Source: a virus
Lineage: Duplodnaviria; Caudoviricetes
Strand: one strand, 5' to 3'
Virus record (IMG/VR): IMGVR_UViG_3300028914_000066
Coordinates: 28,970 to 92,969 of that record
DNA: 64,000 nt
This document shows positions 376-59,676 of this stretch, piece after piece. The translations under genes were made by a program, and so were the position numbers. Under the pieces are notes generated by a model. The model ran no database searches and was not told where the DNA came from. It was given only the letters and a program-made list of their open reading frames with translations. Positions within the stretch are counted from its first letter, which is position 1. Each line of letters opens with the position of its first letter.

Positions 376-3300
376 ATGGCTAAAAAATATTCAAATAATC
401 CTATTCCTGATAAATATACTGATTGGGGTAAAGATCCTACATATCATAATTATCCTTTTAGTGGTAGATCAGTTCAAAATTATATAAAGGAACAATTTGA
501 CAATAAAGTTGGTTATCTCCATCCAGATGCTAGTAATGAAAATTATTTATTATTTGCAGATGAAGATAACTATAACCTTTATATGTCAGATCCTGTACAA
601 TATGCAGATTTGCTTATAGGTACTGTTCCTTTAGCATCAAATTATGTAGTTGCTATAGATTTAGAAAATACTGAAACTATCAATTATATTAATTATGGTG
701 ATACAGGTAACTATATTCAGGCTTACTTTAAAGTTTTAAATAAAGGTGGTGCTGAAATTAGTGATGAGTTTAAAGTTACAATTACAATTCGTAATGGTTC
801 AGCTGTAACTACACTTCATAGAAATGCAACTTATGGTACATTATTTAGCTTAAATATTGATGAATATTTAACTGAAGGAACTAATGTTGTTACTTTATCA
901 GTAGCAGCAGTTACTTATGGTGTAGGTAGTTCTATATCATTAATGTATCATGCTATTGTTCTTAGAGTATCTGATGATTTAGATTTATCAGAAGTTTATG
1001 GTTCTGAGAATGAAGTTATTGAAGCTGCTGTACATATTGAAGGTACAGGTACTAAAAGAATTGAATGGTTTGTTGATGGAGTTCAACTTCCTTTTGATTC
1101 TCAAACTGATGAAACATCTCAATCTTCTACAACTTTAACAAGATATATTTCTGTATCACAATTAGCTGAAGGTAGACATAATCTTCAATATAGGGCAGTT
1201 GTTAATATTAATAGTGTTAATTTCTATAGTGATACTCAATATAGAGATTTCATTGTTTATAGAGGACAAACTTTAGATACTATTATTGTCAATTCTTTCT
1301 CTTATAGGGGAGTTTCTCTTATTGATCCTACTGATGATCCTATTGATTTGGGTTCAGTAGAGCAATATATGACAAAAGAAATAAAGTATGCTATTTATAA
1401 TCCTAATAATGTAGCAGTAAATTCTCTTGAAATAACTATTGCTGGTAAAACTACTACAGTAAATGCTGATAATTATAATGAATATACTTATGAATTAAAA
1501 GCATTTAGTGCAGGTTCAACAAGTTTATCATTTAGTTTAAATGGTACAACATTGGAATATAATGTAGATGTTGAACAATCAAGTTTAGATTTAGATACAA
1601 TAGGTAATACTGAATTTGAATTTGAAGGTAATTGTAGAGTTAATACATCTATTGATAAACGATTAGAGAATTGGTCTTTCCATGCTTTGAGTGGTAGTAC
1701 TTATGCTGCTTCTATGAGTGGATTTGATTATACTGAAAGAAATGGTTGGACAGGTGAAGGATTAATGATAGGTGCTGGAGCTTCTCTTGCATTTAATTGT
1801 GCGCCTTTAAATTATAATATTGTTCAAAATGGTGGTACATTTGAATTTGAATTTGAAACAAGACGAGTTCTTGATGATGATGAAATAATTTGCACTTTGA
1901 TGCAAAATGGTGTTGGTATTAGAATTACTGCATCTGAAGCTAAGATTGTATCACAACAAGGTGTTGAATTATCTTGTAAATATAAAGCTGAAGAAAGAAA
2001 TAGAATTACATTTGTAATTAATCCTTTAAATGCTGCTGTTAATAAAGGTCTTGTATTTATCTTTATTAATGGTATTCTTTCTGGTGTAAAGAATTATCAA
2101 GTTGGTGATAGTTTTACATCAAATATATATGCTGTATTTGCAGGTAGTGCTGATGCTAATATTGTTCTTTATCAATTAAGATTTTATAGAAGAGCTTTAC
2201 GTCTTGATGAAGTTCTTAATAACTATATTCTTTACAGACCTACTGTTGATGAATTATTAGAAGCTTATGATAAGAATGATATTTATACAGGTGGTTCATT
2301 ATCACTTGATAAACTTTCTGCTCAAACTCCTATTATAATTATAACAGGTAATGTTCAAGAACTTCAAGACTTTACAAAAGCAGATAAAGGAACATATAGA
2401 AAGATGGCTAAGATTGAAGTTATAAATACTGATGATCCTACTAGAAATCTTACTCTTGTTGATGCTAGTATGCGTTGTCAGGGTACATCTTCTATGAACT
2501 ATCCTAAAAAGAATTTCCGTTTCTATACTCAGGCTGATAGTAAAGATGAAACTGTAGCATCTTATACAACTAAGATGTACGATTATGAAGGTACTGAATA
2601 TACAGGTGAAGATAGACTTTATGCTTTCAAACAAGGTGCTCAGCCAGTTAAAACTTGGTGTTTGAAAGCTGATTATGCTGAATCTTCTTCAACACATAAT
2701 ACAGGTACTGCAAGACTTTGGAATAATCTTCTTAAAAATGCAGTTATTCAGAATATAGATCAAAGATATTGTCAAAAAGGAAGTATTCCTTATAATGGTA
2801 CTACTCCTTGTAGAACACAAGCTCAGCAAGCTGCTATTGATAATAACTATGAATATGATGTTCGTACTGCTATTGATGGATTTCCTATTGTACTTTTCTA
2901 TCATCTTAATGAAAATGATCCTCTTATATTCTTAGGAAAATATAATTGGAATAACGATAAATCAACTGAATCAGTATTTGGTTTTAAAGATGTTCCTGGC
3001 TTTAATAATGAACATATGGAATGTTGGGAAGTTGTTAATGGTGACTATCCTGAAAACTTATTTACTGATTTAAGTAATTGGGATACTGATATTCAATATG
3101 AAGGTAAAACCATGAAAGGATGGCAACGTGCTTTTGAAGCTCGTTATCCTGATGATAGTGGTAAACCTTCAGAACAAACTCGTGCAGATCAAGCTCTTAA
3201 AACTTTTGCAACTTGGATTAATGGATTGAAAACTGCTGCTAAAGTTCAAGGAGGTCAGGTAGTTGTAGACGATGTTTCAGTTATGGCTACATTTAGTGAA

Positions 3301-8028: not shown

Positions 8029-8228
8029 CTGCTAATGAAGAGAAAGAACTACTTAGATTAACTAAAGAAAATAACTTTATGTTAAAACAAATGTATGGTT
8101 ATATTTCTCATCATATAGCAAATATTAATCAAGAGAATACGGATGACTTTATTAGAAATATTCTTGCTAATGTTATTTCTAACTCCCCTTTAAAAGGAAA
8201 TGATAACAATGGATTTAACAATAGATGA
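8025..8228 (+). CDS. Hypothetical protein
   Basis: 67 aa, ATGA-coupled to the previous gene. Confidence 0.65.
   Translation: MTANEEKELLRLTKENNFMLKQMYGYISHHIANINQENTDDFIRNILANVISNSPLKGNDNNGFNNR
8181..8200 (-). repeat. Dispersed motif copy 2 (C-orientation)
   Basis: aactcccctttaaaaggaaa; encodes NSPLKG. Confidence 0.75.
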
Positions 8229-8790: not shown

Positions 8791-9114
8791 ATGGAAAATA
8801 TTATTAATGAGATTATTCAATCAATTCTTAGTAGTTTTGATTTTGCTTTTTGTCTTATAGTTAATTTAGCAACTTACTTTGTTATTCAAGGTCTTACTGC
8901 TTGTAAACTTAATCTTGGTACTTGGGCTAAAAGAGGCATTTTAGTAGCAATCATTCTTCTTACGGGGGTGCTTTATAAGGTTACTAATGCTGATGATATA
9001 AGAGTTCTTATTAATAGTGCAATACTTGCACCTGTTAGTTGGAGTTGGATATTTAAACCTATACTTAAATATTTAGGTCTTGATTATAAAAAGAAAGAAG
9101 ATGGCAAAGAGTAA
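8791..9114 (+). CDS. Putative holin
   Basis: 107 aa with about three hydrophobic segments and a highly charged C-terminus (YKKKEDGKE). Confidence 0.65.
   Translation: MENIINEIIQSILSSFDFAFCLIVNLATYFVIQGLTACKLNLGTWAKRGILVAIILLTGVLYKVTNADDIRVLINSAILAPVSWSWIFKPILKYLGLDYKKKEDGKE
8954..8973 (+). repeat. Dispersed motif copy 3 (G-orientation)
   Basis: ttcttcttacgggggtgctt, inside the holin gene. Confidence 0.85.
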
Positions 9115-9235: not shown

Positions 9236-9599
9236 AGCTCTTTATAAAATAAGTTTGTATCTGCTAGAGAAGATACCAATGGTAACTGCGGTATTGTATC
9301 TAGCAGATACTATTTTATCCTATTTTACAGATAAAAGTAATGCAATTATTTCTCCTATATGTGGAATGTCATTACTTCCTATTATTTTCTTTTATGTTAC
9401 TTCTATAACATTTGGATTTTGTAAATGGCATAGAATGTTTATACATTATATTGTAGTCAATGAAGCATTAAGTTGGTATGATTATTATGTTGGTATTCCA
9501 TTAAATGCAGTTAATTTATTAATGTTAAACTTAATAATAGCAGGAATATTTTTGTTTTTAATAATATATTTCAAGTTTAGAGTATGCGTGAAGGATTAA
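9207..9599 (+). CDS. Hypothetical membrane protein (about four TM helices)
   Basis: Track ORF 9180..9599, likely start ATG 9207/9210. Hydrophobic segments and an FGFCKWHR motif. Confidence 0.7.
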   Translation: MMKEEKLIGKALYKISLYLLEKIPMVTAVLYLADTILSYFTDKSNAIISPICGMSLLPIIFFYVTSITFGFCKWHRMFIHYIVVNEALSWYDYYVGIPLNAVNLLMLNLIIAGIFLFLIIYFKFRVCVKD

Positions 9600-9877
9600 G
9601 AATGTTGTTAGTTAGAGAATTAAGAGAACTAGCTACAAATATAGAACTTGATAGATGTGAGGCAACAGATGAACAAGGTTTAGATGTATTAGATCTTCTT
9701 CGTCATAAACCTATGTATAAAGAACAATCATATGAATATCTTGGATTAGGTAGAAGTAGATTTGATGATTTAGTTCGTGATGGTATTCTACCAAAAGGTA
9801 GAAAAGATAAAGGTGGAAAACTTTATTGGTATAAAGATGAACTAGATAAAGCAATAAGAGATTATAAAGTAAAGTAA
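9584..9877 (+). CDS. Excisionase/AlpA-like helix-turn-helix DNA-binding protein
   Basis: KEQSYEYLGLGRSRFDDLVRDGILPKG…LYWYKDELD is an Xis/AlpA winged-HTH pattern. Confidence 0.75.
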   Translation: MREGLRMLLVRELRELATNIELDRCEATDEQGLDVLDLLRHKPMYKEQSYEYLGLGRSRFDDLVRDGILPKGRKDKGGKLYWYKDELDKAIRDYKVK

Positions 9878-12965: not shown

Positions 12966-13089
12966 CTGTCTATATCTAAATGTTTTATAATAATTTAATT
13001 TTGGCTCTAAACGCATTAATTTTCAGGTAGTTAGATACTTAATTTAAGTTTAAATATGCCGTCAAAGCATATCCCAGCAGGGTTATGGG

Positions 13090-13121
13090 CTTGTTTTTCT
13101 TATTTATATATTATATATTTG
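13090..13121 (+). promoter_or_regulatory. Bacteroidota sigma-type promoter
   Basis: cTTG at 13090-93, 20-bp spacer, TATATTTG at 13114-21. Confidence 0.55.
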
Positions 13122-13188
13122 CAATACATATTATATATAATAATATTATATAATATATAATTAATAATAATATACATAATATAAATAT

Positions 13189-13210
13189 AAGCACCCCTGT
13201 AAGAAAAGAA
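13189..13210 (-). repeat. Dispersed motif copy 4 (C-orientation)
   Basis: aagcacccctgtaagaaaagaa, intergenic. Confidence 0.8.
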
Positions 13211-13346
13211 TATACTATTCTGGGATATGGTTAAACAGATTTTCTTTCATACGCACTTATTCATATTGTGTAATTTATCTTAATAATTAGGTTAGTGATT
13301 TTGGTTAATAAACATAAAGTAGTTAGAGATAATAACTTTAATGTTG

Positions 13347-13368
13347 TTCTTCTTTTACGGGGGTGCTT
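13347..13368 (+). repeat. Dispersed motif copy 5 (G-orientation)
   Basis: ttcttcttttacgggggtgctt, upstream of the 13395 start. Confidence 0.9.
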
Positions 13369-13394
13369 TAATTAAGATAATTATTCATATTTTT

Positions 13395-14078
13395 ATGGCT
13401 AGTATAAATCAACTTGTATCTGAATTTGCTCACAGTGTTGGTATGCCCAACAATAAAGCACTTCGTGAAAATCTTAAACTATTGATTGTACAAACTCGTA
13501 ATGAGGTTGTTAGACGTAGTTATGAGAATCATGGTTATGTTGATAAAATATTAACTCAAAGATTTGAAGTTTCATTAACAAATGTTAATGATGGAGATAT
13601 TCAAATTCCTGAAGGAATTGAAATAGATATTGCTAAAATAAAGAGAACTACACAAAAAGTTCCTAGACCTATAAGATTAACAAATAATCTTCCGTTTGAT
13701 AGAGTAAGCTCTGTTGGTTTTGCAACTAGCAGAGTTTTTCCTTATATCAAGGAAACAAGTGCTAGATTTAGAAATGCAGTTCCAGGTCTTAGTGGAATGA
13801 TTTGTTATGATTATATTAATGAATATATTTATTTATTTCCTACTAATTGTAATAGTATAAAGTTAGATAAAATTGTAATTGAGTCTGCTTTTGAACATCC
13901 AAATGAAATTGCTATAATGCAAGGTGATGACGAAATGACTATTGCTATGGATAATAATGAATGGTTATTATCTGAAGATATGATTGGACAAATAAAAGAA
14001 TTAATATATAAGAGAGATTTACTTTCAACAATTAGGCAGACTAATGAAATTCCTAATGAAGTAAAATTTAATAATTAA
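13395..14078 (+). CDS. crAss-like tail ring / structural protein
   Basis: Track ORF 13341..14078, likely start MASINQLVSE at 13395. Size and position before the tubular and muzzle genes. Confidence 0.6.
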   Translation: MASINQLVSEFAHSVGMPNNKALRENLKLLIVQTRNEVVRRSYENHGYVDKILTQRFEVSLTNVNDGDIQIPEGIEIDIAKIKRTTQKVPRPIRLTNNLPFDRVSSVGFATSRVFPYIKETSARFRNAVPGLSGMICYDYINEYIYLFPTNCNSIKLDKIVIESAFEHPNEIAIMQGDDEMTIAMDNNEWLLSEDMIGQIKELIYKRDLLSTIRQTNEIPNEVKFNN

Positions 14079-19767: not shown

Positions 19768-21194
19768 GTAGATATAGTTTAAAACGTGGAGGTCAAAGAC
19801 CTCAAGCTTGGATTGGAGCAGTTATTGGTTTAGCTAGTACAGCTGCTAGTTTATATAGTAATTGGAAAAATAGACAAGCTCAAGTTCAAATGAACAATGA
19901 TAATATTGCAGCACAAAATGCTGAATTACAAAGACAAAATCAATTACTTATGGCTAATAATCAAGCAAATACTTTAAATAATTATTATGCTAATGAGGAA
20001 TTGAGAAGAAGAAATTTAGGACAAGATTTAATTTATGCTTGTGGTGGTAAAAAAAGTCTTAGAGCTGCTACAGGTGCTAAAGTTGAAATAACTGATGGAC
20101 TTACAGGAATAGTTCCACTTGGTAACAATGCATTCCTTTTAGAGGGGAGTTCTCATAATCAAGTAAACGAAAGTGGACAAACAGGTATAGGAATGAAAAT
20201 AGGTAATAAAACTGTAGAACTTGAAGGTGGAGAACCTGTTCGTTTTACTGATGATAGTATGCAAGTATTTAGTAAAAGACTTAAATTAAAAGAATTAGGA
20301 GGACTTAGTCCTGCTAAAGCAATAGAATTAGGTTATAATCCTGATATAGTATTTCCTATACAACAAAAAGCTAATGGTAATAACAGCACCCCTGTAAAAG
20401 GAAATAGACATAAAGCAGGTTATGGAGATTGGATTAATTTTGGTAGTGATATAGCAACTGCTTTAGGTACAGCATTAATTAATAATAATGCATATAAGAA
20501 ATTAAATGTAAATCTTCAAAAACCTAATTATTATGAAGAAACACCTGTTATTTTAGATACTAAATATCATAATGCAGGACAACTTGCTAATTTAGAAAGA
20601 ATGAGATTAGCAGGTAATACAACTATAGGTAGAAATAGTGCTAATTCTCAACTTGCTCAAGCTAGAATGAGATTGAATAATCTTGATTATGGTTTGAAAC
20701 AAAACGAATTAATTGATTATGCTGCTAATTATAATGCTAATATGAGAAATCAGCAAGCTCAATTAGAACAAGGTGTAAGACAAAGAAATATAGCAGCTAA
20801 AAATTTATGGTCAGCACAAGTAGCAGATACTATTAATCGTGAAAGAGAATTAGGAAATAATCGTACTCTTATGAGAGGACAAAATTGGAGTAATATGTTA
20901 GCAGGATTTAATAGAGCTGGAACTAATTTATATACTGCAATTAATCAAAGAAAATCAGATACTGATGCTTTAAGAGCTTATATGGCTGCAAGTAATCCTG
21001 GAAGCGATGAAACTTTCTTACTTAATGGAGGAACTTTTGGACCTGAAGTTGATGCAGAATATTATAATAGATTTAGAAATGTTGCAAAGACAGAAGAACA
21101 AATAGCTTTAATGAATAAAATTAGAGGTAGAATGACACCTTGGCAAAGACGTCATTATCTTGGAGAAGATAAAGAAACAAGTAAGATTGGATAA
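19764..21194 (+). CDS. Virion cargo / ejection protein
   Basis: 476 aa. N-terminal hydrophobic AWIGAVIGLASTAASL, Q/N/A-rich coils and a GSSH…GIG…VELEGGE domain. Confidence 0.6.
   Translation: MSRYSLKRGGQRPQAWIGAVIGLASTAASLYSNWKNRQAQVQMNNDNIAAQNAELQRQNQLLMANNQANTLNNYYANEELRRRNLGQDLIYACGGKKSLRAATGAKVEITDGLTGIVPLGNNAFLLEGSSHNQVNESGQTGIGMKIGNKTVELEGGEPVRFTDDSMQVFSKRLKLKELGGLSPAKAIELGYNPDIVFPIQQKANGNNSTPVKGNRHKAGYGDWINFGSDIATALGTALINNNAYKKLNVNLQKPNYYEETPVILDTKYHNAGQLANLERMRLAGNTTIGRNSANSQLAQARMRLNNLDYGLKQNELIDYAANYNANMRNQQAQLEQGVRQRNIAAKNLWSAQVADTINRERELGNNRTLMRGQNWSNMLAGFNRAGTNLYTAINQRKSDTDALRAYMAASNPGSDETFLLNGGTFGPEVDAEYYNRFRNVAKTEEQIALMNKIRGRMTPWQRRHYLGEDKETSKIG
20385..20405 (-). repeat. Dispersed motif copy 6 (C-orientation)
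   Basis: agcacccctgtaaaaggaaat, the exact 21-bp reverse complement of 45322-45342; encodes STPVKGN. Confidence 0.9.
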
Positions 21195-27100: not shown

Positions 27101-30100
27101 TTTAATAAAAGATTTGCTGAAGATCTTGGTCGTCAAGGTTATGAAAGAAAGATGAACGTAGAGAAGAAAAAGGTAAGTTCTTCTGCATCTGAAAATCCCT
27201 CAGAATCAAACGAAAGTTTAACTGAAGAGGATAGTCCACAAACCGACCATGAATCCAACACAGACAGGCAAAATGGCATTGAGGGCGAAAATACTGATAA
27301 AGATACCACACCGAAATTGCCAAAAGCAAAGATTACTATTAATGCTGATGATAATAATAAAATAATTGTTGAGTCTGTTGCAGATGATAGTACTGGTACT
27401 AATGTAGTTGAACTTGAACCTTTAGAAGAAAACAATTATAAAATAATAATTGCAAATGATGCTAATAATGTAAACGAATTATTGCAAAGTAGTACATTAT
27501 TTGTTGGATTTGATAGAACTAAAGAAAATAATGATAAATATGAAAGAGAAATAACTAGATCTCCTTATATTAATATAGGAAAAGATGAAAATACTGGAGA
27601 TGATATTTATAAAGTAGTAAATACAGGCAAAATTGTTTATAAAGAAAAACAACCTGAAGCTAAAGCATCAATTCCTTTTACGGGGGATTTAGATGGAGCT
27701 GATATACCTAAAGATGCTTTAGCAGATGTTAATGTTCCTCTTACTAGCACACCTTTAGGAAAAGAAATGTTTGATGCTAGACAAGATATTATGAGAGCTA
27801 AAAGTAAATTTTGGCTTGAATCTAAAACTCCTATTCAACAAATATGTGATGAATTAAATCAACAATTAGAAGAAATTTATGGTGATGGTGATAGAGAAAC
27901 ATTGGATGCTGTTAAACAAGATACTCCTAAAGTTGTAATATCAGGATTATTTGGCGAAAATGAAATTAAAGATGAAGAAATTCAAAATCTTAAAGAAGGT
28001 GTTGAAAATGTAGTAAAACATTCTATTATTGATGAAACTATTAAACTTGAAGAAGATGTTCTTAATTCAATTCATAAAATAATTCCTTATTATTTAAATA
28101 AACACAAATCTTCATCATTTAATATTGAAGGTAAAACTAAATATTATATTAATCTTAATCAACTTCTTGATGATATTAACGAATTATATGGAAATTCTGA
28201 CATTAGTGCTATAGTTCACGATTTTTTAGTATCATATCTTAATACTAATGAAGGTAAACAAAGATATGCTATTACTTATTTAGATCCTAATTCTCCAGAT
28301 TTTCTTGAAAAAATAAATGCTAAAGATGAAACTAGATCTGCTAATAATTTAAATACTATTCAAGAAGCCGATATTAACAAATTTGGCAAACAAGGTAGAA
28401 ATGAATTAAATAAATTAATTCCTGGAAGTAAGATTGATGTAGAAATTTCTCAATATGAGAATTATGATAAAATTGATGATTATTTATCATTGAAATATAA
28501 TGGTATAGAAATTGGAGGATTAGCTTTAGCTAATTATATTGATGGTAAATATAGTAAGTATACTCAAGGTTGGAATTATATATTATCTGAAGATAACGGT
28601 TATATAAATTGTAATTTATTAAATGTATTTATTGATTTACTTAATGATAAACACGTTTATAATACTTTATTAGAAATAAGAAGTGAAAATACAAGTGAAG
28701 AAGATAAAATTAGACTTAAAAGAAATTTAAATAAATATATAGCTAATTTTAAATATAATGGTGAAAGATTAGGTAAAAAATACGTATTTGAAGGAACTAA
28801 AGAAAATAAATCTAATAGAGGACAACAACCTGTAGAACATTTAATTCTTCTTACAACATATGATGAAGCTTTAGCTAAAGCAAGTTATGAAGAAGCTAAA
28901 CATTTATTACAAGACACTATTTATAAGTTTATACAAAAAATGTATTATACTTATGATGCAGCGAAAAGTGTTAAAGATAAATTAAATAGAGGAGAAAAAG
29001 TATCAATAACTGTAGATGAAATACCTGGTGGTAAATTATTACAACCTGTAGAATTTGTTACAAAAGATACTTATTCTCAATTAAATCAATCTAATATCGC
29101 TGTTGCAAATACTGATAAAGTATTTTTAGGTATAAAAGAATCTAATGAAAATGGTAATAGTGGTTTAACTGTATTAAATGATGGACAAGAAATATTTATA
29201 AATCACTTATATACAGGTAGTATTGTATTATCATTTAAAGACAAAAATGATAAATTTTGGCATACTAGAGCAGTATCTGTTAAATTTAATGATGAACACT
29301 TAGATAAAAATAGTAAAGCTTACGAATGTATTCAATTTATACAAGATGAATTTGGTAGAAGAATTGATGATTGGAATAAGAATAATGATAATTTTGTTTC
29401 TTTCGTTGATTATTGTAGAAAACTTTTTTCAAAGAATTATAAAGGTAAAGATAGTACTAATGAGTCTTTACTTAGAAATGTTCAATTCAGATATACTAAT
29501 AGTACTATTAGATTAGGTGATGAAAATAATATTTTAATTGAAATTTCTAGGAATAGAATTAAAGTAAGCGGTAAAAATGCTATTGAAACTATTTATAATA
29601 AAAAAGATATAACAGGTAATGACTTTAAAAAAATAATTAAACCTTTATTAGATAAATCTATATTTAATATAAGTTATACAATACTTAAAGAATTTAGTAA
29701 TAAAAATAAATCATCATTGACTAGTGGTTTTATTGATAGAAAAGTAGTTACTGATAACGATCCTACTGCTATTCAACTTAAAATAAATTCTGTTGATAAA
29801 AATATAGAACCTTTTGTTTATACAGCTAAAGACTATAAATCTTTATTAATAGAAGGAGGTTTTCTTAGAACAAATACTAAAAAGTATTCTTATAAAGATA
29901 AAAAAGGAAAAACAATTACTAAAGAAGATAATTTTGATTATAGTGAAAGTAGTAAATTTAAAATTATAGTTCCCAATTTCAATAAAGAAAATAATAGCTC
30001 CCCTGTAAAAGAAGAGATAACTAAAAATGATAGAGATATATCTAAAATAGAACAAATTATTCGTGAAGGTAAATATAATCCTATTAGAAAAGCATTTGAA

Positions 30101-34017: not shown

Positions 34018-37000
34018 ATGGATACTTTAAAACAAGATAGTTTTAAAGTATTTGCTATTAATGAAAAAGCTATAAAAAGACCTTCACAAACTGAACATTA
34101 TATTACATTTGAAGTTGATGATGAAGGCACAAAATATACTGTTGTAGTTGAAGGTAAGTATGATACTGAAAATAAAATATTTACTAGAAATACAGAAAAT
34201 TATTTAACTATAATTAAAGAAGATGAAGAAAATCTTTTAGATTTAGCTAATAGAGTTAAAGAATTAATTGCAAATGATATTATAAATAGACGTCATATTA
34301 CTATTGGAGGAAATACTTGGTATAATGGACAGTTTTTAACTAAAACTGTAAATAAAGATCATGCTATTTATAAACAAATGCGTAATGCTTTCTTACAAGA
34401 AGCACAAAATGCAGGTACTGCTATTAAATTTATGTTTGATACAGCAAATGGTAGTATAACTCCAAGTAATTTAATAACAAATAAAAAATCTAAATTCTAT
34501 AATAATTATCATTATAAGAAAGAAGCTATAGTAGATGGTAAACTTACAGGTCAAGTTTTCACTTCAGATAGATTTACCTTAACTGATGATAAAGGAAACT
34601 TAGTTAATTATATGACTAAGAAATTTGAAGTTGATGGTAAAGTATATCAAGTAATAAATGATGATGTTATAGATATAAGTAAACCTAATGCTACATTTAA
34701 TCCTTATAGCATCAATTTCCTTTACGGGGGTGCTGATTCATACTTACATCTTGATTCTGAGGGTAATGCTAAGCTAACTGCTAAACAAGAAGAAGCTTTA
34801 GATTATGCATTAACACAATATATACTAGATTATGTTGAAGATAGTAAGAAAAGACTTTTACCTTATACTGATTTAATTCATAGTGCTTCTATGACTTCAG
34901 ATGATAATATTGCAGAATATGCTCTTAATTATCATATGATGTACATTAATTCTTGTGATTTATTTGATGGTGATAGTAAATTCTATAAGGATACACAAGA
35001 TATATTTAAACGTTTAAAAGAAACTCAAGCTGGTGGTCTTTCTTACGCTATATATGATATAACTAAACCTAAATTAAAAGATAGTGCAGAAAAACAATTA
35101 ATAGAAGGAGCTTATCTTAATAGTAATGAGATTCAAAATAAATTAAAAAAGTACGGAGTATCTTATTTTTTAAATGATTGTAAACAATATAGTAGTTTTG
35201 TTGGAGTAACTATCACAAATAAAAAAGTTACTAATGCAAGAGATAATAAAATTATTGGTAATAAATTAGCTGAAGCTTTAAGAATGTCTAAGGATTTAAC
35301 CGAAGATCAAATTAAAGAAAAAGTAGCTAAAATGATGAGTGGTTATACTGATATTACAACAGATGATGCTCAATCTTATATTACATTAGAAGAATGGATT
35401 AGACGTTTAGCAGCTAGAGGTCAATTAGATGAAAATATGCCTCTTATACAAAAATTATTAGATAAAAATTCACCTTTAACTGATAAAGATTTAGATACTT
35501 TTGTACAAGTTCAAAAGAATTTCTATTATGATTTACATTTAGATGAAGATGCTGGTATTATAGTGCCTAGACAAATTAAGAACGCTGAATATGTTTTAGT
35601 TCCTAGATTTATTGAAGGTACTCAACTTCAAACACTTTATGATAATATGATAGAAGCTGGTACAGATCAGCTTAATACTGAAGAAACATCTAAAGCAGGT
35701 AAATCTAAAATAGTTGATGTTTGGACTAAAGATAAAACAGGTATTAGAAAAAATCTTGTAGAAGCTTTTGGTGAAAATAAACAACAATACGATTATAATT
35801 ACTTATATACTCAGCAAGAAACTCCTCAACATATGGATGAGTCTAATAAGGCTGGTGTACAAATAGTTAAGAAACTTATTGATAATATACAAGATATTAC
35901 TCCTGAGTATAAAGAAACTGATGAATGGAAAAACTTATCTGATGAAGTAAAACAAAATAAAATTAAACTTTATAATGATAAGCAAAAGTTTTTAGATAAT
36001 TTCTCTGAAAATATTAAAGCTAGTTTTACAGACCTTATGAAAGATTTAATTAAGGATGTAAAATCTAATATGAAAAATGGAAATCTTGTTATTGACGGAG
36101 AAGTTGTTAAAGGCGTTGATTATATGAATTTATTAGAGCGACTTGAGTCAGAATTATTACGTCTTAATGCAGATAGTAATAGTCTTGATTATGTTACTCT
36201 TATCGATGATGCTTTTGAAATTGTTAGCAAAGATGAAAATACTTTAGGTATTATAACAAAAATGCCTACTATATTTCCATCTATTAAAACTAAACTTGAA
36301 CATGCAGCTCAAGCTATATTTAATAATAATATTACAAAACAGCTTCTTCCTGGTTTTCATGCTGCACAGGTAACATCTGCTGGTTTTGCATCTCTAAATT
36401 TTGAAAATCCTAAATATATTAAAAGTAAAAAACTTAATTATCATATTTCAGAAGATGGCTTTGTAAATTATATAGAAGTATTAATTCCTGCTAGTGCATT
36501 CGGTTTGAGTCTTGATGATAGCAAATATAAAGATGGAGAAGAAATGCGTCAAGCATTACAAGATGCAGGTCTTGATCAATTTATTGGTTATCGTATTCCT
36601 ACTGAAGGTAAACAATCTGTTTGTATAATGAAAGTTGTAGGAATTCTTGATAATTCTCAAGGTTCTACAATAGTTGTTCCTGATGGTTGGGTTGCTCAGA
36701 CAGGTTCTGATTTTGATATTGATAGTATTTATACTATTCTTTATGAATCAGTAGTTGATAGAGAAGGAGATATTCATAAATATCATAGTGAAGAAAACAA
36801 TAAATCTCAAAGAAATAATAATATTGTTGATGCTTTACTTAGCATACTTAATAATCCTTTAACATTAGAAGAAGGTCTTTCACAATCAAAAACTACTGAT
36901 ATTACTGATGAATTAAAAGATCTTGTTAAAGGTTCTTATATTGATAATGAAAGAAAAAATAGAAGTAGTTTTAATGTATTAGATCAAATAGAATTTCAAA

Positions 37001-40000
37001 CTGAAGGTTTACAAGGTAAAGACTTGAAAGCTTTTAGTGTTAATCGCGATGGTTTTAATTCTATTTGTAATGTAGCTAAACCTACTTTAAATAGACCTAT
37101 AAAAGTAGTTTATACATTAAATGAAGATCAATATAAACTTGCTGTAAAAACATTCGGTAAAGATAACGTTGAAGATTTAGATGGAGAAGGACATTATGAA
37201 GTAACTCATACTACATGGGGATGGACTAATACATTTAGAAATATTAAAGGAGATTTATTACTTCCTTATTCTTCTGAAACTACAGCTCATATGCTTGATG
37301 CTGTAAAAATTGGTCATATTCCAAATGTAAACACTGAAACATTTAAAGTTTATAAGACATTTGTTGATATAGGTTCAGATTATAGTACTGCATTAGTATT
37401 TATTATGCAACCTGCTATTGGCAGATTTATAGATAAGTATAATCGTAAAAAGTCTATTTATTCTGAGGATTTAACTGATCCTATGAAGCAAACTTATATT
37501 GATATTGCAAAACAATTAGGTGTTGAAACTAAACAGAAAAATAAAAAAGAAATTAAACAAGGTATAGCTGCAGTCCTTGCTAATGAAATAGAAACTATAT
37601 ATAATATTTTAGATTACGATATACTAAAAGAAAGGTTTTATAATAACTCCCCCGTAAGCGAAGAGAGTGCTAAACACTTAGCTATTGATTATTTAATTCT
37701 TGATAAGTATGAAGAACTTTCTGATATAGCTTCTGAAGCTGAAAATTATTCTATGGTTCTTAGACCAGATAAATTTGGTGCTAAAGAAAGTATTTGGAAA
37801 ACAAAGAAAGTATTTAAAGATATATATAACATTCTTGATAAAGAGAAACATTTGTTTACTGTTAATGATAAAAATCTTTTAGAAGCTATCTATCCTGGAA
37901 TTGATAACGGTTTTAATAGTTATCTTCAAGATACAAAAGATAATGAAAGTGTATATAAACCTTTACAATATTTCTTAAAATATGGTACAGCTACTTCTAT
38001 AGCTATAAATAAACTTTTATTTCCTACTGAGTCTGTAGAATTTGAGAATTTTGTAGAATCATTATCAGATTATCTTACTGTTAGAAGTCTTCCTGAAGAT
38101 GTTTATAAGAGTTTTACAAATTATATTCTTCAAGGAATTTATAATAATATTAAGAGTATTAGTTTTCCTGTTGATTATATTAAAAATAAAGGTTTTAAGC
38201 CTAGAGATGTAAAATCAACAGAAGATAGACTTAAAGTTCAAGAAGCTGAAAAACAAAGAATATTTGGTTATCAACATATATTTAATACTAGAAATAATCC
38301 TTCTAATTTTAAAGTAGTTGATATTGCTAGACCAACACAAGAAGAAATTAATAAATTTTCTGCTTTTTCACCTGCTGAAAAAGTAAAATGGGTTAAAGAT
38401 AATTTTGCAGATGGTTTAATATGTAAATATTTAGAACCTAGAACTTATATTAATTCTGTTTATGGTGAAAAATATCAAGCTTGTCAAACAATTACCTTTA
38501 ATGAAGATAATATCGGAAGTGAAGTAGTTTATGATGAATTTGATAAAACTTTCAATAATACTAATCCTTTCTTAGCTATGACTGCTTTAGATTTAATAAA
38601 GTATGCATTTGTTGTAGAAGGATATCAAACTAGAAAACATTCTATCAATAGAGTTATTAAAAATAGTGTTCTTATTAATGATAATAATAATTATGGTTTG
38701 AACATTATTGAAGATTTAAAGAATGAATTTAATAAATTTGTAATAAATTTAAAAGATAATGAAACTAGAAATTTAATTAGAGAAGATTTTATTAGAAGTC
38801 ATACAGAATTAGAAAGTGTACCTAAACTTAGACTTAATAAAGATAATTATAAAGACTTTATTAAAAATAATAATGTTCAGAATACAGGTGTAATTAAATT
38901 ATCTTTAGAACAAGCTGAAGTTATAAATGAAGATACACAAAATAATAAAGAAGATGAACAATATCAAAACTTCTTAAATAAACTTAAACCTTATATTATA
39001 ATTCAAGGATATGAAGGAGGTAAGTTAAAGAGTATTTTATATAAAACTGTAAATGAATATAATAATGTTATTTATCTTTATCCTTTATCTAAACTTCAAA
39101 ATAACGAAACAGGTGATATCAGTTGGTATGATGAAAATAATAAATTAGATGATAATGTATATCAACCTCAAAGTTATTATTTAGAAGTTATAGAAAAAGA
39201 TTATAATGGAGATAGTAATTTACCTAAAACACAAAGAAATTTAACTACTTTTGATAATAATGCTGTAATTCTTGATAGTAAAGAAGAAGAATTAGGAGAT
39301 ATTAAAAAATTAAAGAATAGTATAGCTAATAACGAAAATAACTATTTTGTTTATAAAGCTAACGATATTGATTATCTTGATAAGAAACTTCCTTATGTAA
39401 AAGAAAAATATATACCTTTAAAAGTAAATAATAAAGACTATAGAGTTGAAAGATTTATTATGTCTAAAGGTTTATTTGACTTTACTACTAAAGAAGGTTT
39501 AAGAAAAGTATATAATTCTGCTAAACGTAAATATGATTATAGTCAAAAGAATGATAGCAATCCTATAAGCAAAGAAGATGCTTTAAGAAAAACTTTAAAT
39601 CAATATGTTGCATATAGTCGTTTAGCTAAAGAATTACAAGATGTAATATTTGATAAGATTAATCTGTGGATTAATACTCATGCTAGCAATAATTTTAATA
39701 ATTTTGTTGCACCTAATAAATTATTTGGAAATTTATTTATTGTTCAAAAAGTTGAAGTTAAACAAGCAGATGTTGAAGAATCCTTAACTTATGCAACTAA
39801 ACAAAATATTAAGTATGCTAGAACAAGTAGAAATCCTTTAGCAGAAAAATTTAGTAAAGGAATTAAACAAGCAGGTGTAAATATTCATGAAAATGATTTA
39901 AACTCTTCAGATGATGAAAAAGTTAAGAACACTATAGGTAATCATCTTGAGGATATAGCATCTCTTAATAGAATATTTGTTAAGAATGAAGTTAATGATA

Positions 40001-45201: not shown

Positions 45202-45222
45202 AACTCCCACGTAAGAAGAGAA
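45202..45222 (-). repeat. Dispersed motif copy 11 (C-orientation, one core mismatch)
   Basis: aactcccacgtaagaagagaa, overlapping the terminator. Confidence 0.6.
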
Positions 45223-45321: not shown

Positions 45322-45343
45322 ATTTCCTTTTACAGGGGTGCTT
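45322..45343 (+). repeat. Dispersed motif copy 12 (G-orientation)
   Basis: atttccttttacaggggtgctt, intergenic. Confidence 0.9.
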
Positions 45344-46804: not shown

Positions 46805-47275
46805 CTATCTTATACATTTATCGTATAATGCAACACCAACATAAGTTATTTCAGGTGCATATTCAGTTTTTATAGTAAGAACTTCTGTATTTTTAAAATA
46901 AAGAACATATTGTAGTTCCTTTTTATTTAATACTTTAAAATATACAAGTGTACCATGTATCTTTTTATCTTCCTTAATCATACAAATATCAGCAAGTTTG
47001 CTATAATCCCAATCTTTAATATCTTCAAAGAAAAGACGTTTCTTTCTTGCATCTTTAATAGTTAAATTAGGTTGATTTCTTTCTACATATTGTTCACAGT
47101 CAGATTTATACATACTAGAATATTTGACAAGTTTTCTATCTTCATCAAATACACACCATAAATCAGAACCTACTTTATAAGGTTTTACAATTAAATTCAT
47201 AATATCTACATTGTTAGCATCATTTCCTTTTACGGGGGAGGTTGAATTAACTCCCCTGTAAAAGAAGAATGACAT
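46805..47275 (-). CDS. Hypothetical protein
   Basis: Track ORF 46805..47293. ATG at 47275 abuts the upstream stop. Confidence 0.6.
   Translation of the reverse strand: MSFFFYRGVNSTSPVKGNDANNVDIMNLIVKPYKVGSDLWCVFDEDRKLVKYSSMYKSDCEQYVERNQPNLTIKDARKKRLFFEDIKDWDYSKLADICMIKEDKKIHGTLVYFKVLNKKELQYVLYFKNTEVLTIKTEYAPEITYVGVALYDKCIR
47222..47270. repeat. Dispersed motif copies 13 and 14 as a close inverted pair
   Basis: atttccttttacgggggag-gttgaattaa-ctcccctgtaaaagaagaat. Confidence 0.9.
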
Positions 47276-53697: not shown

Positions 53698-54211
53698 AAT
53701 TAGTAAAAATAACTACTTTATTAGGCTTTCCTATCATACCATGATTATATTGTATTACTTTTGCTATATTTGTTGTATTAATCCAATCAATACCATCCAT
53801 TTGTAATGTTGGACTATTTAAATAATTAGGTCGTTTACCTTTTTCAATATAACAACAATGATTTATATAATCATAATTATTAGGAATTTTAATACCTTTG
53901 TGAATATTAAAATTATGGAGTTTAAGAGTTTCTAATGAAAGAAAATCTTTACTATTATCTTTCAAATTTATATGACCATAAGCTAAAACATTATCTCTTT
54001 TTATTGAATAATTTTGAAGAGTAACATTTTGTACTCGTGGATCATTTTGCATAAGACTATCTATAACTGCTTCATCTTCATCAGTTATAGGTATCATTAT
54101 AAGTTGTTCTACTCCTAATCCATTATATATTCTAGAAGTTAAAATCACTTTCTTCTCTTTCAAAGTCTGTAAACTGACTTTGCTCATATTGCTTATATCT
54201 AAGTCTGACAT
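53678..54211 (-). CDS. Hypothetical protein
   Basis: 177 aa, overlapping the primase 3' end; start uncertain. Confidence 0.6.
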   Translation of the reverse strand: MSDLDISNMSKVSLQTLKEKKVILTSRIYNGLGVEQLIMIPITDEDEAVIDSLMQNDPRVQNVTLQNYSIKRDNVLAYGHINLKDNSKDFLSLETLKLHNFNIHKGIKIPNNYDYINHCCYIEKGKRPNYLNSPTLQMDGIDWINTTNIAKVIQYNHGMIGKPNKVVIFTNFVYNKK

Positions 54212-55349
54212 ATGTTAAAGTTTCATTAATAAATTGTTCAATTTGTTTACTATTATACACTTTGTGTAAATCAGCAAAATCTTTAGCATGATAATTTGGT
54301 AAACCAAATTCACCTCTAGTTATAAATAGATAAGGAATATTATATGTTGTTGCCAAATAATTAGCACCTCTTCTTCCTGTTCTATCAAAATCTAACAATG
54401 ATATAATCATACCATCATCTTTAAGTTTATTATGAAGATATGAATATTCATTATCTTTAAGTAGATAGCTTTCACTTGGTAAGTTTACTACACCAATATT
54501 GAGTTTATCAGCTCCCCCGTAAAAGGAGAGATGACGTAAATAGCTACCTATACTTAATCTATCTTTACTACTTTTTGTAAGTAATATATAATCATAATTA
54601 TCAAGTTCAAGATTTAATAATCCTTCTATTACATTACAATTAGTAATAAATTTAAGTTCTGTTTGTCTATTTCTTAATGGAAAATAAAGTTTAATTAGTC
54701 TAATACCTTGTTTTTCTCCAAGTAAATAAGCATAACAAGGATCTTTTTTATTATAATAATATTTAGGATCACTATCTACACTTCTATTTACATAATATTG
54801 TTCTACAGGTATTACAAAATTTCTACTAAGAAATTGTAAACTTATATTCCAATTAGCCCAAACATCTTTATCATCCTTATTCCAAGAACGAGTAACAAGA
54901 TCAATTATTGGTCTTTTACCTCTGCTTTTAATAAGTGCATTTTTAATAGTTTCATCGATATTAGGATCTATTTCTTCTCCGTCTATAACTTTACTAAAAG
55001 TTATAGCAATATGTTTAAGAATGAAATAAAAATCATTCTTATTATTTGTTTCTATTCTTCTTTCATAGATAGAACTTAAAACATAAGCTACAACTCCGTA
55101 AATATCTTCAAAGAAACCAAATCCACCAAAATCACGAACTTTTAACCTACCTTTTTTATTATATTGAATACCCATACTAGGTGTATCTCCATCATCTCTA
55201 AATACTGAAGGAATAAGTTTATTGTATTTAATACAATATTCTACAGTTTCTTGTTTAAGTCCTAAATATTTAGCAACAATAGCTTCTTGAGATATTTTAG
55301 ATTCAATAAATTCTTTAGTAAGTTTAGTTGTAGCTATATTTCTTTTCAT
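54132..55349 (-). CDS. DNA primase (DnaG/TOPRIM-like, crAss type)
   Basis: SVFRDD…PS…RDFG N-domain; LTKSSKD, DFDRTG (DxD) and AKDFAD TOPRIM motifs. Confidence 0.8.
   Translation of the reverse strand: MKRNIATTKLTKEFIESKISQEAIVAKYLGLKQETVEYCIKYNKLIPSVFRDDGDTPSMGIQYNKKGRLKVRDFGGFGFFEDIYGVVAYVLSSIYERRIETNNKNDFYFILKHIAITFSKVIDGEEIDPNIDETIKNALIKSRGKRPIIDLVTRSWNKDDKDVWANWNISLQFLSRNFVIPVEQYYVNRSVDSDPKYYYNKKDPCYAYLLGEKQGIRLIKLYFPLRNRQTELKFITNCNVIEGLLNLELDNYDYILLTKSSKDRLSIGSYLRHLSFYGGADKLNIGVVNLPSESYLLKDNEYSYLHNKLKDDGMIISLLDFDRTGRRGANYLATTYNIPYLFITRGEFGLPNYHAKDFADLHKVYNSKQIEQFINETLTYVRLRYKQYEQSQFTDFEREESDFNF
54510..54530 (-). repeat. Dispersed motif copy 16 (C-orientation)
   Basis: agctcccccgtaaaaggagag; encodes SFYGGA on the minus strand. 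Confidence 0.88.
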
Positions 55350-55422: not shown

Positions 55423-56307
55423 TTAGAATGGCATTTCATCCTGAGCAGCATTATATGCACCTTGATCTGAAGGCATACCTCCACCCATCATAGGATCACC
55501 AGCCATAACTCCACCCATACCAGGCATATTAGGAGCTTTCTTAACATCCTTAGGAGTTATACTTTCTTTGCTTAAATCCATACGAAGAATTGAAGGAGGA
55601 TTATTACCATTTTGGAGTTCTACAAATCCATTACCAATAAACGGATCAAATGCAAGTTCTCCATTAGCAACATTCTTCCATTCACCCTTAATCTTCTTAG
55701 CACGAATAAGCTTAATCCAACATCTGATAGCTTTACCATCCTTATCCTTAAATATAGGTTTCGGAGTTTCACCATCTTTAGCTGAAACAATACCATTAAA
55801 TATATTTGCTACATTTGTGAAAAGAGTACCATAAGCATCAGCTACATCCTGAGGATCAACTGCTATATAGTTATTATTTTCATCAAAATCACAGAAGTTA
55901 AGAGCAAGCATATCTTCTTCTTCAGCAGTCATAAGACGACCTCTAAGATAGAATACATCAATAAGATGCTTAATACCATTAAGTACTTGATTAACCTTCC
56001 ATTCTTCTTGACCTCCAGGAATAGTATTAACATTAGACTCTACAGGGAATAGAGTATAATAAACATGACGCTTTTCAGCAGGCTTTGCATGAGTTGATGT
56101 AAATTCAAAAGTAAGATGAGGAACTCTAATTCCTGCAAATACTTTTGCATCATTGTTAGTAGACCAATCTACTGATACTTGTGCAAGCTCAGCAACAAAC
56201 AAACCGTTAGGTGCAGCATCTTTCTCATGAAAACGAAGCTGATTAACTGCTTGTGTTTGGTTACTTACGCCTCTGCGAACTTTTTTAACTTCTTTTTCTT
56301 CACTCAT
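55423..56307 (-). CDS. Putative single-stranded DNA-binding protein
   Basis: Gly/Met/Pro-rich linker and acidic C-terminal DEMPF tip, adjacent to the primase. Confidence 0.65.
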   Translation of the reverse strand: MSEEKEVKKVRRGVSNQTQAVNQLRFHEKDAAPNGLFVAELAQVSVDWSTNNDAKVFAGIRVPHLTFEFTSTHAKPAEKRHVYYTLFPVESNVNTIPGGQEEWKVNQVLNGIKHLIDVFYLRGRLMTAEEEDMLALNFCDFDENNNYIAVDPQDVADAYGTLFTNVANIFNGIVSAKDGETPKPIFKDKDGKAIRCWIKLIRAKKIKGEWKNVANGELAFDPFIGNGFVELQNGNNPPSILRMDLSKESITPKDVKKAPNMPGMGGVMAGDPMMGGGMPSDQGAYNAAQDEMPF

Positions 56308-58244: not shown

Positions 58245-58275
58245 CAAATATAGGCATTTATTTTCAATCATCAAT
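58245..58275 (-). promoter_or_regulatory. Bacteroidota-type promoter
   Basis: Minus strand aTTG (58275-72), 19-bp spacer, TATATTTG (58252-45). Confidence 0.55.
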
Positions 58276-59676
58276 CATAAAATCAAAATTATTTTTATCA
58301 TCATTGGCTATTTCACATTTATTAACTATTGTGTGCGTTTCCGACAACGATTTGTTAAATAGTTTTGACTCTTCTATTGTATTTTTACAAAAGATAGAAT
58401 ATAATTTTATTTTATCTTTATATACAACATTAGATAGACGATACATATAAGTTTCTATATCTTCACATAGTGGAGATGTTATAATAATAACATCAACATC
58501 AACAGTAAGCTTTTTATCAGGAGAATTTGATAAACTTAAAACATTAATTCTACCTAAATTAAATAGTTGTTCATTTAATGTTTTTTGAGATTGAACTCCC
58601 ATCATTTTTCTTTCTCCTTTAGCTTTTCCAGATTTAATATAAACAGCATTTCCATTAATATCAACAGCAGGAATATCATCAACTTTATCATGATAATTAG
58701 CGCAAATGATAGTTTCAGACATACTATTTACATATTCAGTAACCTTATTAGCAAATTCGCCTCTTTTACTAATTACTAATATTTTTTCACCTTTATGTTT
58801 ATTTATTATTTCAACAACTTTCTCAAGTTTAGGTTCATAATCACTAATAAGAATATTTCTATTTCTTATCATTTCATATGTTCTACCTGCTCTTTCTCTT
58901 AAACTGTTTGGATTATATAATTCATCAATATCTCTATTATATTGAATAGACATATCTAATGAATCATTCCAACCATTTTCAGTTGCTATTTGTAAACATA
59001 TAGAAGAAGCTGAAATATTAAGAACAGCATTACCCATTCTAGCTTGTTGCATATTATTAAAACTACCAAATATATTAAGAGAAGTTTGAATATACTCTGT
59101 ATATTTTTGATAATCTTTATAATCTTGGGTTTCTGTAGGTATTTCTATTTTAATCCATTCTTCTTCTACGGGGGTGCTTAAGCGAATTGCCTCTACTTCT
59201 TTTTGTTTAAAAGCTGAAAGAAGTGGACAAACTTTATAAAGATCTTGTAATTGACTATAATCACTTAAAAGTTTATTGAAAATTACTAATTGAAAGTGGG
59301 CTTTTCTTAATAGTCCAAATATGTAATTAGTTATTTCCTCAGGATTATATATAATTACTAAATCTAATAATTGATTATAATCTTTTGCAAGATTATAACT
59401 AAATACTTTTAAAGTTTTATCATTAAGTAATTGTTTAAATTCCTTATCATTATCTTCATCTTGATTTGTTATAAAGTCAATTATATCCATTCTATCTTTG
59501 AATGTATTAGTAACAATAAGAATTCTACATTGAGGATTCTTACTATACATTCTAGTTAAAATGTTATAAATCATTATTTTATCATTAAGAGGAGGAGGAA
59601 TTAAACAAGTACCAACACCATGATTATTTTTCCATTCTTCTACAGCATCGTCAAATATTTGATTTATATCTGCCAT
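58264..59676 (-). CDS. Degenerate SF2 helicase-like protein
   Basis: Two-RecA-domain-like layout (KLEKVVEII…KILVIS…VDVIIITSP) but no Walker A or DExH motif. Confidence 0.55.
   Translation of the reverse strand: MADINQIFDDAVEEWKNNHGVGTCLIPPPLNDKIMIYNILTRMYSKNPQCRILIVTNTFKDRMDIIDFITNQDEDNDKEFKQLLNDKTLKVFSYNLAKDYNQLLDLVIIYNPEEITNYIFGLLRKAHFQLVIFNKLLSDYSQLQDLYKVCPLLSAFKQKEVEAIRLSTPVEEEWIKIEIPTETQDYKDYQKYTEYIQTSLNIFGSFNNMQQARMGNAVLNISASSICLQIATENGWNDSLDMSIQYNRDIDELYNPNSLRERAGRTYEMIRNRNILISDYEPKLEKVVEIINKHKGEKILVISKRGEFANKVTEYVNSMSETIICANYHDKVDDIPAVDINGNAVYIKSGKAKGERKMMGVQSQKTLNEQLFNLGRINVLSLSNSPDKKLTVDVDVIIITSPLCEDIETYMYRLSNVVYKDKIKLYSIFCKNTIEESKLFNKSLSETHTIVNKCEIANDDKNNFDFMIDD
59158..59179 (+). 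repeat. Dispersed motif copy 17 (G-orientation)
   Basis: ttcttcttctacgggggtgctt; encodes STPVEEE on the minus strand. Confidence 0.85.

Follow-up and report, generated by a model that had tools for sequence, protein, structure and literature searches.

A strand-specific DNA motif repeated in and outside genes of Intestiviridae phages

Introduction

Chi sites, read by RecBCD or AddAB, are words of 5–8 nt that are defined by the host and enriched in host DNA. The parS and matS sites are palindromic. Promoters of the T7 group are asymmetric, about 20–23 bp long, and carry about 30 bits; all of them point with the genes, and promoter and polymerase co-evolve by lineage. Nick-associated motifs (WACTRTGAC) are present in T5, phiKMV-like phages, tf, and Rembedalsseter; they are about 9 bp long, lie on one strand only, and are clustered in part of the genome (PMC11780129). 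In priming of the T7 gp4/DnaG type, an initiation trinucleotide and about 10 nt of 3' flank select the sites used, and the strong priming sites of T7, which depend on the 10-nt 3' flank, are 1–6 kb apart (PMC12839067).

The motif described here was noticed in a 64,000-nt stretch of phage DNA (the window), and its preliminary description interpreted it as a dispersed set of binding sites on which selection acts at the level of DNA. In this work, its copies were counted, compared among Intestiviridae genomes, and set against these systems. Literature searches, made with sequence strings as well as words and with subscription journals outside their coverage, found no published description of the motif.

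Results

The motif, (AGCAT-N3-4-)TTCYTTTTACRGGGGWGCT, has 18 copies in the window according to pattern search and profile scan (Table 1). The pattern search, allowing up to three mismatches, recovered 16 copies vs. 0.13 expected from dinucleotide shuffles, and the profile scan added two weaker ones, 37645(−) and 45202(−). The complete genome of 92.8 kb carries 27–28 copies, 15 on the plus and 12 on the minus strand. The 17 copies of the preliminary description are all real, with positions within 1–6 bases, but the list was incomplete, as 20133(+) had been overlooked. The reported reverse complementarity of copies 20385(−) and 45324(+), the latter given there as 45322, was confirmed: over 21 bases, the two are identical on opposite strands. 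The eight G5/C5 runs of the window are without exception inside motif copies, as had been noted, and so are 17 of the 27 runs of four or more G or C. The peptides reported to recur, S-[TS]-P-[VL]-K-[EG], FYGGA, and FTGD, are present as products of the motif, and the earlier figure of thirteen copies within genes is about right, 12 being clearly intragenic. The pair 47224/47249 is located at the extreme start of a doubtful ORF, and genome cr271_1 has a copy, 31982(+), at the intergenic place equivalent to 13349.

Table 1. Copies of the motif in the window, with coding context and occurrence in related phages.
Position	Strand	Type	Context	Pairing and relatives
1296..1314	+	weak, 3 mismatches	sense, in 2263-aa fibre-like ORF	
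8181..8199	-		small ORF (antisense) or between genes	
8954..8972	+		sense, 107-aa ORF	lineage-specific; orthologous place empty in 6 relatives
13190..13208	-		intergenic; AT-rich spacer flanked by pair	left member of divergent pair with 13349
13349..13367	+		intergenic, ~30 nt upstream of structural-protein ATG at 13395	divergent pair with 13190
20133..20151	+	absent from earlier list	sense, 476-aa ORF	
20385..20403	-	perfect match	antisense, 476-aa ORF	
27672..27690	+		sense, 2287-aa ORF	
29996..30014	-		antisense, 2287-aa ORF	
34716..34734	+		sense, 3724-aa ORF	orthologous copy in 5/6 relatives
37645..37663	-	weaker	antisense, 3724-aa ORF	kept within Obtuvirinae
45202..45220	-	degenerate	intergenic, directly past 3724-aa ORF stop	divergent pair with 45324
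45324..45342	+		intergenic, at convergence of two gene blocks	divergent pair with 45202
47224..47242	+			tight convergent pair with 47249, hairpin-capable; pair also in cr271_1 and L024
47249..47267	-			partner of 47224; pair also in cr271_1 and L024
52139..52157	+		antisense, close to DNA ligase gene 3' end	lineage-specific
54510..54528	-		sense, DnaG-like primase gene	orthologous in 6/6 relatives, two reading frames
59160..59178	+		antisense, 470-aa helicase-like gene	orthologous in 6/6 relatives

Codon usage is not the source of the motif, because reshuffling of synonymous codons yields only 0.13 new sites per genome. This shuffle is usable only for the count of new sites; existing sites survive it in 10–67%, and since the motif itself imposes peptides, it is a poor null for them.

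The core Y5-TAC-G5 was found in 21–34 copies per genome in all seven Intestiviridae genomes compared, p-crAssphage and crAss002 among them, and in none of their reversed-sequence controls. Both strands are used in every genome, and the site profiles carry 26–37 bits. All seven genomes have orthologous sites in the primase and helicase genes, and conserved sites hold the same codon-level positions although the primases are only about 45% identical. At orthologous sites, the DNA core is retained even though it is read in different frames and beside different residues (LYGG vs. PLRG), and the flanks match each genome's own consensus, or dialect. The claim that selection acts on DNA and not on protein is thus strongly supported, and the signal is common to the family Intestiviridae in lineage-specific dialects and not peculiar to this genome. 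The close relative L024 is 84% identical overall and 87% identical within sites, a divergence too shallow to reveal extra constraint. The word of crAss001 differs (CTTCTGGAG), and phi14:2 has no strong word, although it has a replication module with primase. An exact-pattern scan of IMG/VR with the dialect of this genome gave only 23 single chance matches, a 14-mer scan of genome contigs gave only scattered single matches, mostly in GC-rich genomes, and no close relative of the phage's DNA polymerase was found in IMG/VR.

Of the 14 strand sets from the seven genomes, 12 have a same-strand spacing more regular than expected by chance (CV 0.25–0.5; p ≤ 0.006 in 11 sets and p = 0.019 in one more). 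Median same-strand gaps are 4.6–8.8 kb, and maximum gaps are likewise bounded. The regularity is a property of each strand: when all sites of this genome are pooled over strands, CV is 0.75 and p is 0.09. Same-strand neighbours less than 450 bp apart are nearly missing (1 observed vs. 12.3 expected), whereas close neighbours on opposite strands are enriched (32 vs. 13 expected). Divergent pairs concentrate at 28–41 bp, and close inverted pairs hold about one third of the sites. In cr271_1, the left 59 kb is almost devoid of minus-strand sites. The regular spacing per strand, the conservation in the family, and the dialects are all absent from the preliminary description.

Of the 198 sites of the seven genomes, 78 are sense and 55 antisense within genes; the other 65 are intergenic. 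The 78:55 proportion is the 3:2 ratio fixed by availability of open frames, in support of the earlier claim that orientation is independent of transcription. Non-coding DNA, about 9% of the total, holds 33% of the sites, and two thirds are inside genes. Several intergenic copies are situated 25–55 nt upstream of start codons, in sense direction. As the asymmetric word recurs at regular intervals along each strand and runs through coding sequence, it is the DNA itself that is read.

The sites are 19–30 bp long, with no additional sequence travelling with them. The pyrimidine tract has a pyrimidine in 988 of 990 cells, with C and T freely interchangeable. Position 14 is always C or T, T15 is present in 183 and A16 in all 198 sites, and within any one lineage the 3' block is kept; the T15/A16 pattern is compatible with CTA/TTA initiation sites of primases. 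A hairpin of the five pyrimidines and the G-run with a TAC loop was considered and rejected. Its stem scores as 91–99% paired, which is uninformative because any pyrimidine pairs with G, and in this genome it is mostly G-T wobble; an association of A with T is confounded by dialect, leaving no informative covariation. The IHF consensus, the vaccinia-type CCCTT topoisomerase site, and the Bacteroidetes −7/−33 promoter were compared by eye, and none of them fits across dialects.

The product of the primase gene matches phrog_12622 DNA primase (E 3e-59, PHROG), and its Toprim E-G and D-x-D columns show no variation. It has no match in the PDB by sequence; its predicted structure is poor (pLDDT 59), with weak best fold matches to DnaG cores. 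A scan of about 20 ORFs against PHROGs or Pfam gave no single-subunit RNA polymerase. Pfam, PHROGs, and Atlas gave three leads, namely a weak HTH at 9584–9877, a sub-threshold ParA-HTH hint at 62050–62373, and an SSB-like product at 55423–56307, and no tie of any of them to the motif was found there. The proposal of dispersed binding sites for a sequence-specific protein is reasonable, although no candidate reader emerged from these databases.

The 13-mer was as frequent as its reversed control in 41 and then in 151 genomes from the family of a Prevotella MAG, which may not be the family of the true host. These genomes have about one copy per 2–3 Mb; the phage has one every 3.4 kb. A few of them carry REP-like hairpins CCC-TAC-GGGGGA, which are true palindromes, unlike the phage sites. 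The suggested Chi-like role is contradicted because the word is not enriched in host-family genomes, and a parS- or matS-like role does not agree with the non-palindromic motif.

One contig from the source sample is colinear across 45202, 45324, 47224, and 47249 with no differences. In four metagenome runs from ruminant and other gut, covered as assembled contigs only, in which rare forms are lost, there were no molecule ends and no supported inversions at the sites; the apparent joints have sides of 21–24 nt and are noise-like. A 198-base skip beside the primase site was seen in two runs of one sample and is not interpretable.

Discussion

Selection maintains the motif as a strand-specific signal at the level of DNA, and its reader is probably a protein encoded by the phage. 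The reading preferred here, with a probability of about 0.45, is that the copies serve as start sites for a strand-specific DNA enzyme acting in priming or nicking. Each copy would be a start or entry site for an enzyme that works on one strand and, whichever strand this is, has to meet a site within about 10 kb. The version with dedicated priming sites for DNA synthesis is tentative; in it, the invariant TA and the C or T before it would form the initiation trinucleotide, and the enzyme would recognise the G-run together with the 3' flank typical of each lineage and copy the five pyrimidines into an all-purine primer. Site-specific nicking is a slightly less likely version. Several findings count against start sites in general. 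The gaps of 5–8 kb are long for Okazaki fragments, minus-strand sites are almost missing from the left part of cr271_1, the primase module of phi14:2 comes without the strong word, and crAss001 has a different one. Moreover, the known primases require only about three specific bases, and we know of none that needs about 30 bits; the known nick motifs, for their part, are only about 9 bp long and confined to one strand (PMC11780129).

A protein that binds the copies as architectural sites to organise, condense, package, or eject the genome, and that does not act on a strand as an enzyme, would suit the long asymmetric word with its 26–37 bits and lineage dialects, the even spacing, the orientation unrelated to transcription, and the pairing of opposite-strand copies. 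However, a duplex binder has no obvious need for regularity that exists per strand and not in the pooled sites, an obligate pyrimidine that may be either C or T is odd for base-specific reading of duplex, and Pfam, PHROGs, and Atlas offered no candidate protein. This reading is doubtful. It is improbable that a phage RNA polymerase, e.g., the virion RNA polymerase, uses the copies as promoters or hairpin promoters and starts at the G-run as at T7-type promoters. The virion RNA polymerase of phi14:2 transcribes single-stranded DNA, which counts for this, but early transcripts of the same phage have no common upstream motif, which counts against (10.1101/2020.03.07.982082). The length, asymmetry, information content, and lineage co-evolution resemble those of T7-group promoters, and the sense copies shortly before start codons would fit too; on the other hand, orientation is unrelated to gene direction, the 55 antisense sites inside genes would as promoters mean genome-wide antisense RNA, and the Y5/G5 hairpin is mainly wobble without informative covariation.

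A signal read by the host, which would either attenuate a host nuclease as Chi does or imitate a host repeat and so titrate a host factor, is already weakened and quite improbable. Chi is the classic oriented word, repeated every ~5 kb, and the REP-like hairpins of a few host-family genomes resemble the core, but the 13-mer stays at control level in the 151 genomes, no Chi comes near the word in length, flanks differ among phage lineages at orthologous sites, and the host copies are true palindromes. Close inverted pairs, with about a third of the sites, could also recall a mobile or recombination repeat (MITE or REP ends, homing-endonuclease targets, or invertase sites flipping segments). This is largely refuted because site positions are conserved, at codon level despite the divergence of primases and in primase and helicase genes of all seven genomes; sites lie within essential genes, two thirds of all being intragenic, nothing extra travels with the 19–30 bp, and the source-sample contig is colinear over four sites, an inverted pair included. 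Such a repeat is very improbable.

Intestiviridae include the most abundant human-gut virus, and little is known of their replication and DNA handling; the signal marks a presumably essential step that constrains the whole genome. Across subfamilies it occupies the same positions in genes, and it is strong enough to dictate codons in those for the primase, the helicase, and the virion RNA polymerase. Speculatively, Intestiviridae, the prototype crAssphage included, may possess dedicated strand-specific sites for priming, or for nicks that prime strand displacement, about 5–8 kb apart on each strand and co-evolving with their enzyme. If so, they would replicate with sequence-programmed fragment boundaries, which is undescribed for any phage. 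Exact coordinates and oligonucleotides are available for finding the reader protein, the motif is a simple signature by which these phages can be recognised in metagenomes and their subtypes told apart, and their engineering or synonymous recoding should respect it.

Among the known systems, Chi is similar as an oriented over-represented word spaced by several kb, but the phage motif has 26–37 bits, differs between phage lineages, and is not enriched in host-family genomes. T7-group promoters share with it length, asymmetry, bits, lineage dialects, and a G-run at the presumed start, but the motif copies point either way regardless of genes. With the nick-associated motifs it has in common that a specific word is over-represented and has been kept throughout a phage group whose DNA is otherwise little alike, with copies in and outside genes regardless of coding and function unassigned in both (PMC11780129); it differs in being 19–30 bp long, present on both strands, and evenly spaced. 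Strong sites of the T7 gp4/DnaG type differ in that gaps are 5–8 kb and information about 30 bits here, while the DnaG-like primase of the phage is a point of likeness, and the invariant TA after C or T with the conserved 3' block may be another.

Copies of the Motif and Anatomy of a Site

A pattern search with TTYYTTTTACRGGGGWGCT, allowing up to three mismatches, gave 16 matches in the window, against a mean of 0.13 and a maximum of 2 in its dinucleotide-preserving shuffles. A profile built from these copies and run over the genome picked up two weaker ones in the window and 10 further copies in the 29 kb beyond it. The motif reported in the preliminary description is thus real, and the profile recovers both weaker copies listed there, although the list was incomplete, as 20133(+) had been missed. 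That all G5/C5 runs of the window fall in the motif is also correct (8 out of 8). Synonymous codons reshuffled within genes created just 0.13 new sites per genome, so the motif is not a product of codon usage. A looser AGCAT-N3-4 block lies upstream of the core in this genome. The genome is 92,969 bp with 27% G+C, and bases 1-151 recur at 92819-92969. This terminal repeat of about 151 bp shows that the assembly is complete, as a circular or terminally redundant genome; the window's right end is thus no physical end of it.

Per-position counts were taken over all 198 sites of seven Intestiviridae genomes. Of the 990 cells at the five positions 5' of TAC, 988 hold a pyrimidine, C or T freely. 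The central A is invariant, with T preceding it in 183 sites and C following in 170; the next four G are present in at least 192. A lineage-specific block of 4-9 bases stands 3' of the G-run. A hairpin between pyrimidines and G-run is possible on the motif strand only and would be mostly G-T wobble in the studied genome; covariation was uninformative.

Positions of motif copies and other features in the window
Feature	Position (strand)	Remark
Divergent pair	13190(-), 13349(+)	Around AT-rich spacer
Pair	20133(+), 20385
Pair	45202(-), 45324	45202(-) is a weaker copy (profile scan)
Tight pair	47224, 47249	Same pair in cr271_1 and the closer relative L024
Weaker copy	37645(-)	Profile scan
Site in giant virion-RNAP-like ORF	34716(+)
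Site in primase gene	54510(-)
Site in helicase-like gene	59160(+)
Non-coding DNA	12966-13394	430 bp, very AT-rich run between 13190(-) and 13349(+)
DnaG-like primase	54132-55349(-)	Toprim E-G and D-x-D motifs
ORF without Pfam or PHROG match	55423-56307(-)

Occurrence in Related Phages

The studied phage groups with Obtuvirinae (Intestiviridae); cr271_1 has a primase with 68% identity to the one encoded here. Each relative carries the motif in its own spelling. Reversed-pattern controls gave 0 matches in the relatives, except for one in cr110_1 with a broader pattern. Iterated profiles, with an information content of 26-37 bits, found 21-34 sites per genome in the seven genomes and 0 in reversed sequence. 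Judged from these genomes, the signal is common to the whole family and no peculiarity of the studied one.

Spellings of the motif in relatives (pattern matches)
Phage	Spelling	Copies
cr271_1	YTCTTCTACGGGGGAGCT	about 18
cr8_1	CTTTTACGGGGSGGC	about 21
ctcc615	YTTCTACGGGGGWGS	about 23
cr110_1	CCTCTACGGGGGG	35
Prototype crAssphage (BK010471)	CCTCTACGGGGGG	21
crAss002	CCTTTAYGGGGGA	31

In prototype crAssphage (BK010471.1), two sub-spellings, CTCTACGGGGGG and CTCCACGGGGAG, exist side by side, and both altered positions change jointly; there could be two readers, or a pair of contacts in which change is tolerated. The motif core was not found in crAss001 and phi14:2, both Steigviridae. The crAss001 genome (MH675552.1) lacks the word TACGGGGG and has a different nine-letter word, CTTCTGGAG, in 29 copies on both strands versus 1.2 expected, regularly spaced on the minus strand (p 2e-4) and not clearly on the plus strand, which may be an analogous signal of another family. 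The motif is apparently undescribed: searches by sequence strings and by words, in an incomplete coverage of the literature, found no publication on it, and it is not described in the phi14:2 RNA polymerase preprint or the crAssphage phage-plasmid preprint.

Selection on DNA at Orthologous Sites

The DNA core in the primase gene is kept in all seven genomes, and across 22 aligned primases Y-G-G never varies within an otherwise hypervariable loop. The site is read as L/F-Y-G/R-G (TAC GGG) in five genomes and as P-L-R-G (CTA CGG GGG) in cr110_1 and crAss002, with the register shifted by one base. The preliminary description was therefore right that selection acts on DNA and not on protein. The helicase site is kept in 7/7 genomes, that in the giant virion-RNAP-like ORF in 6/7, and one beyond the window, in a small ORF, in 5/7; four other sites are lineage-specific. 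Flanks at orthologous sites match each genome's own consensus: cr8_1 has GGCTAGA 3' of the G-run at three of them, and crAssphage has GGTCTAC or GAGT there. All sites within one genome thus drift together, which points to a putative reader co-evolving with the phage. The feature is real and strongly selected.

Arrangement on the Strands and Relation to Genes

Same-strand gaps in the studied genome have a coefficient of variation of 0.35-0.48 (plus) and 0.31 (minus) and are more even than expected by chance, with p from <1e-4 to 0.002. Of the 14 strand sets from the seven genomes (all copies on one strand of one genome), 12 are significantly regular, with p ≤ 0.006 in 11 and 0.019 on the cr110_1 minus strand. 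Median gaps are 4.6-8.8 kb, and the largest gaps are below chance in most sets. Orientation alternates above chance in six of seven genomes, because two regular series interleave. Closer than 450 bp, one same-strand neighbour was seen versus 12.3 expected, and 32 opposite-strand neighbours versus 13; the offset of divergent pairs clusters at 28-41 bp. Within the window, the non-coding DNA at 12966-13394 is the most origin-like place. In cr271_1 (NC_055887.1), plus-strand copies recur every ~7 kb genome-wide, and the left 59 kb has hardly any copies on the minus strand.

The 198 sites comprise 78 sense and 55 antisense in genes and 65 intergenic. Read antisense, one of the motif's three frames is closed by TAA or TAG, and the open frames (three sense, two antisense) predict 60:40; 59:41 was observed. 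Coding constraints alone would thus yield the orientation seen relative to genes, and its independence of transcription, as proposed earlier, stands. Antisense copies clearly inside genes of the studied genome all use one frame, giving S-T/S-P-V/L-K. One third of sites lie in non-coding DNA, which makes up roughly 9%; this fits a signal sitting where its cost is least.

Host Genomes

The 13-mer YYYYTACGGGGGR showed no excess over its reversed control in 41, then 151 genomes from the family of a Prevotella MAG, although the host of this bovine-gut phage may differ. Its density is roughly one per 2-3 Mb there and one per 3.4 kb in the phage genome. A few of the host-family genomes have 6-11 copies, most of which belong to a GC-rich true palindrome, TCCC-TAC-GGGGGA. 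Palindromic units CCCCTCCC-TAC-GGGGGAGGGG are present in some of these genomes, in one place (contig positions 23500-24000) as a ~35-bp tandem array that contains G-runs. These units resemble REP-type hairpins, and their similarity to the phage word is superficial only. The null result speaks against a word used throughout the host genome, Chi-like or otherwise, and the list of roles proposed earlier is partly excluded.

Possible Function

A gap bound on each strand, indifference to genes, asymmetry, and about 30 bits with co-evolving dialects fit the site of a strand-specific enzyme. The copies may be start or entry sites of a phage-encoded enzyme for priming or nicking (probability about 0.45), which would start or enter there and then act across several kb on one strand. 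Purely architectural binding sites are an unlikely alternative, and polymerase promoters are improbable. A host-encoded reader is slightly more so, the 13-mer being without enrichment in the 151 genomes, and a mobile or recombination origin is very improbable; the residual probability belongs to mechanisms outside those named.

Within the strand-specific enzyme reading, priming is slightly more probable than nicking but itself doubtful. The phage encodes a DnaG-like primase (database match, alignment, and a weak fold match). Its N-terminal 100 residues have a single invariant cysteine, and the usual template-reading four-ligand zinc finger seems missing or degenerate. Among the Atlas clusters nearest to the ORF at 55423-56307(-) is phage 'SSB single stranded DNA-binding protein' (score 0.96), a lead only. 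DnaG-type primases start at a trinucleotide, e.g., CTA, TTA, or CTG. A primer copied from the pyrimidine tract would consist of purines only, and at a divergent pair the two primers would run toward one another over the AT-rich spacer, an arrangement expected of a bidirectional start. Points that weigh against priming are the long same-strand gaps, the cr271_1 left arm with a single minus-strand site (31906), and the amount of sequence in the motif, which no primase is known to require. In T7, a 2026 study finds about 26 strong priming sites, 1-6 kb apart, chosen through a 10-nt 3' flank (PMC12839067). The motif has (C/T)TA followed by a conserved 3' block, which would be compatible with a priming site. 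Nicking is rather unlikely. Conserved nick-linked words have clear precedents in phage families, but those are short, confined to one strand, and clustered (PMC11780129), whereas the motif here has about 30 bits and is evenly spaced on both strands.
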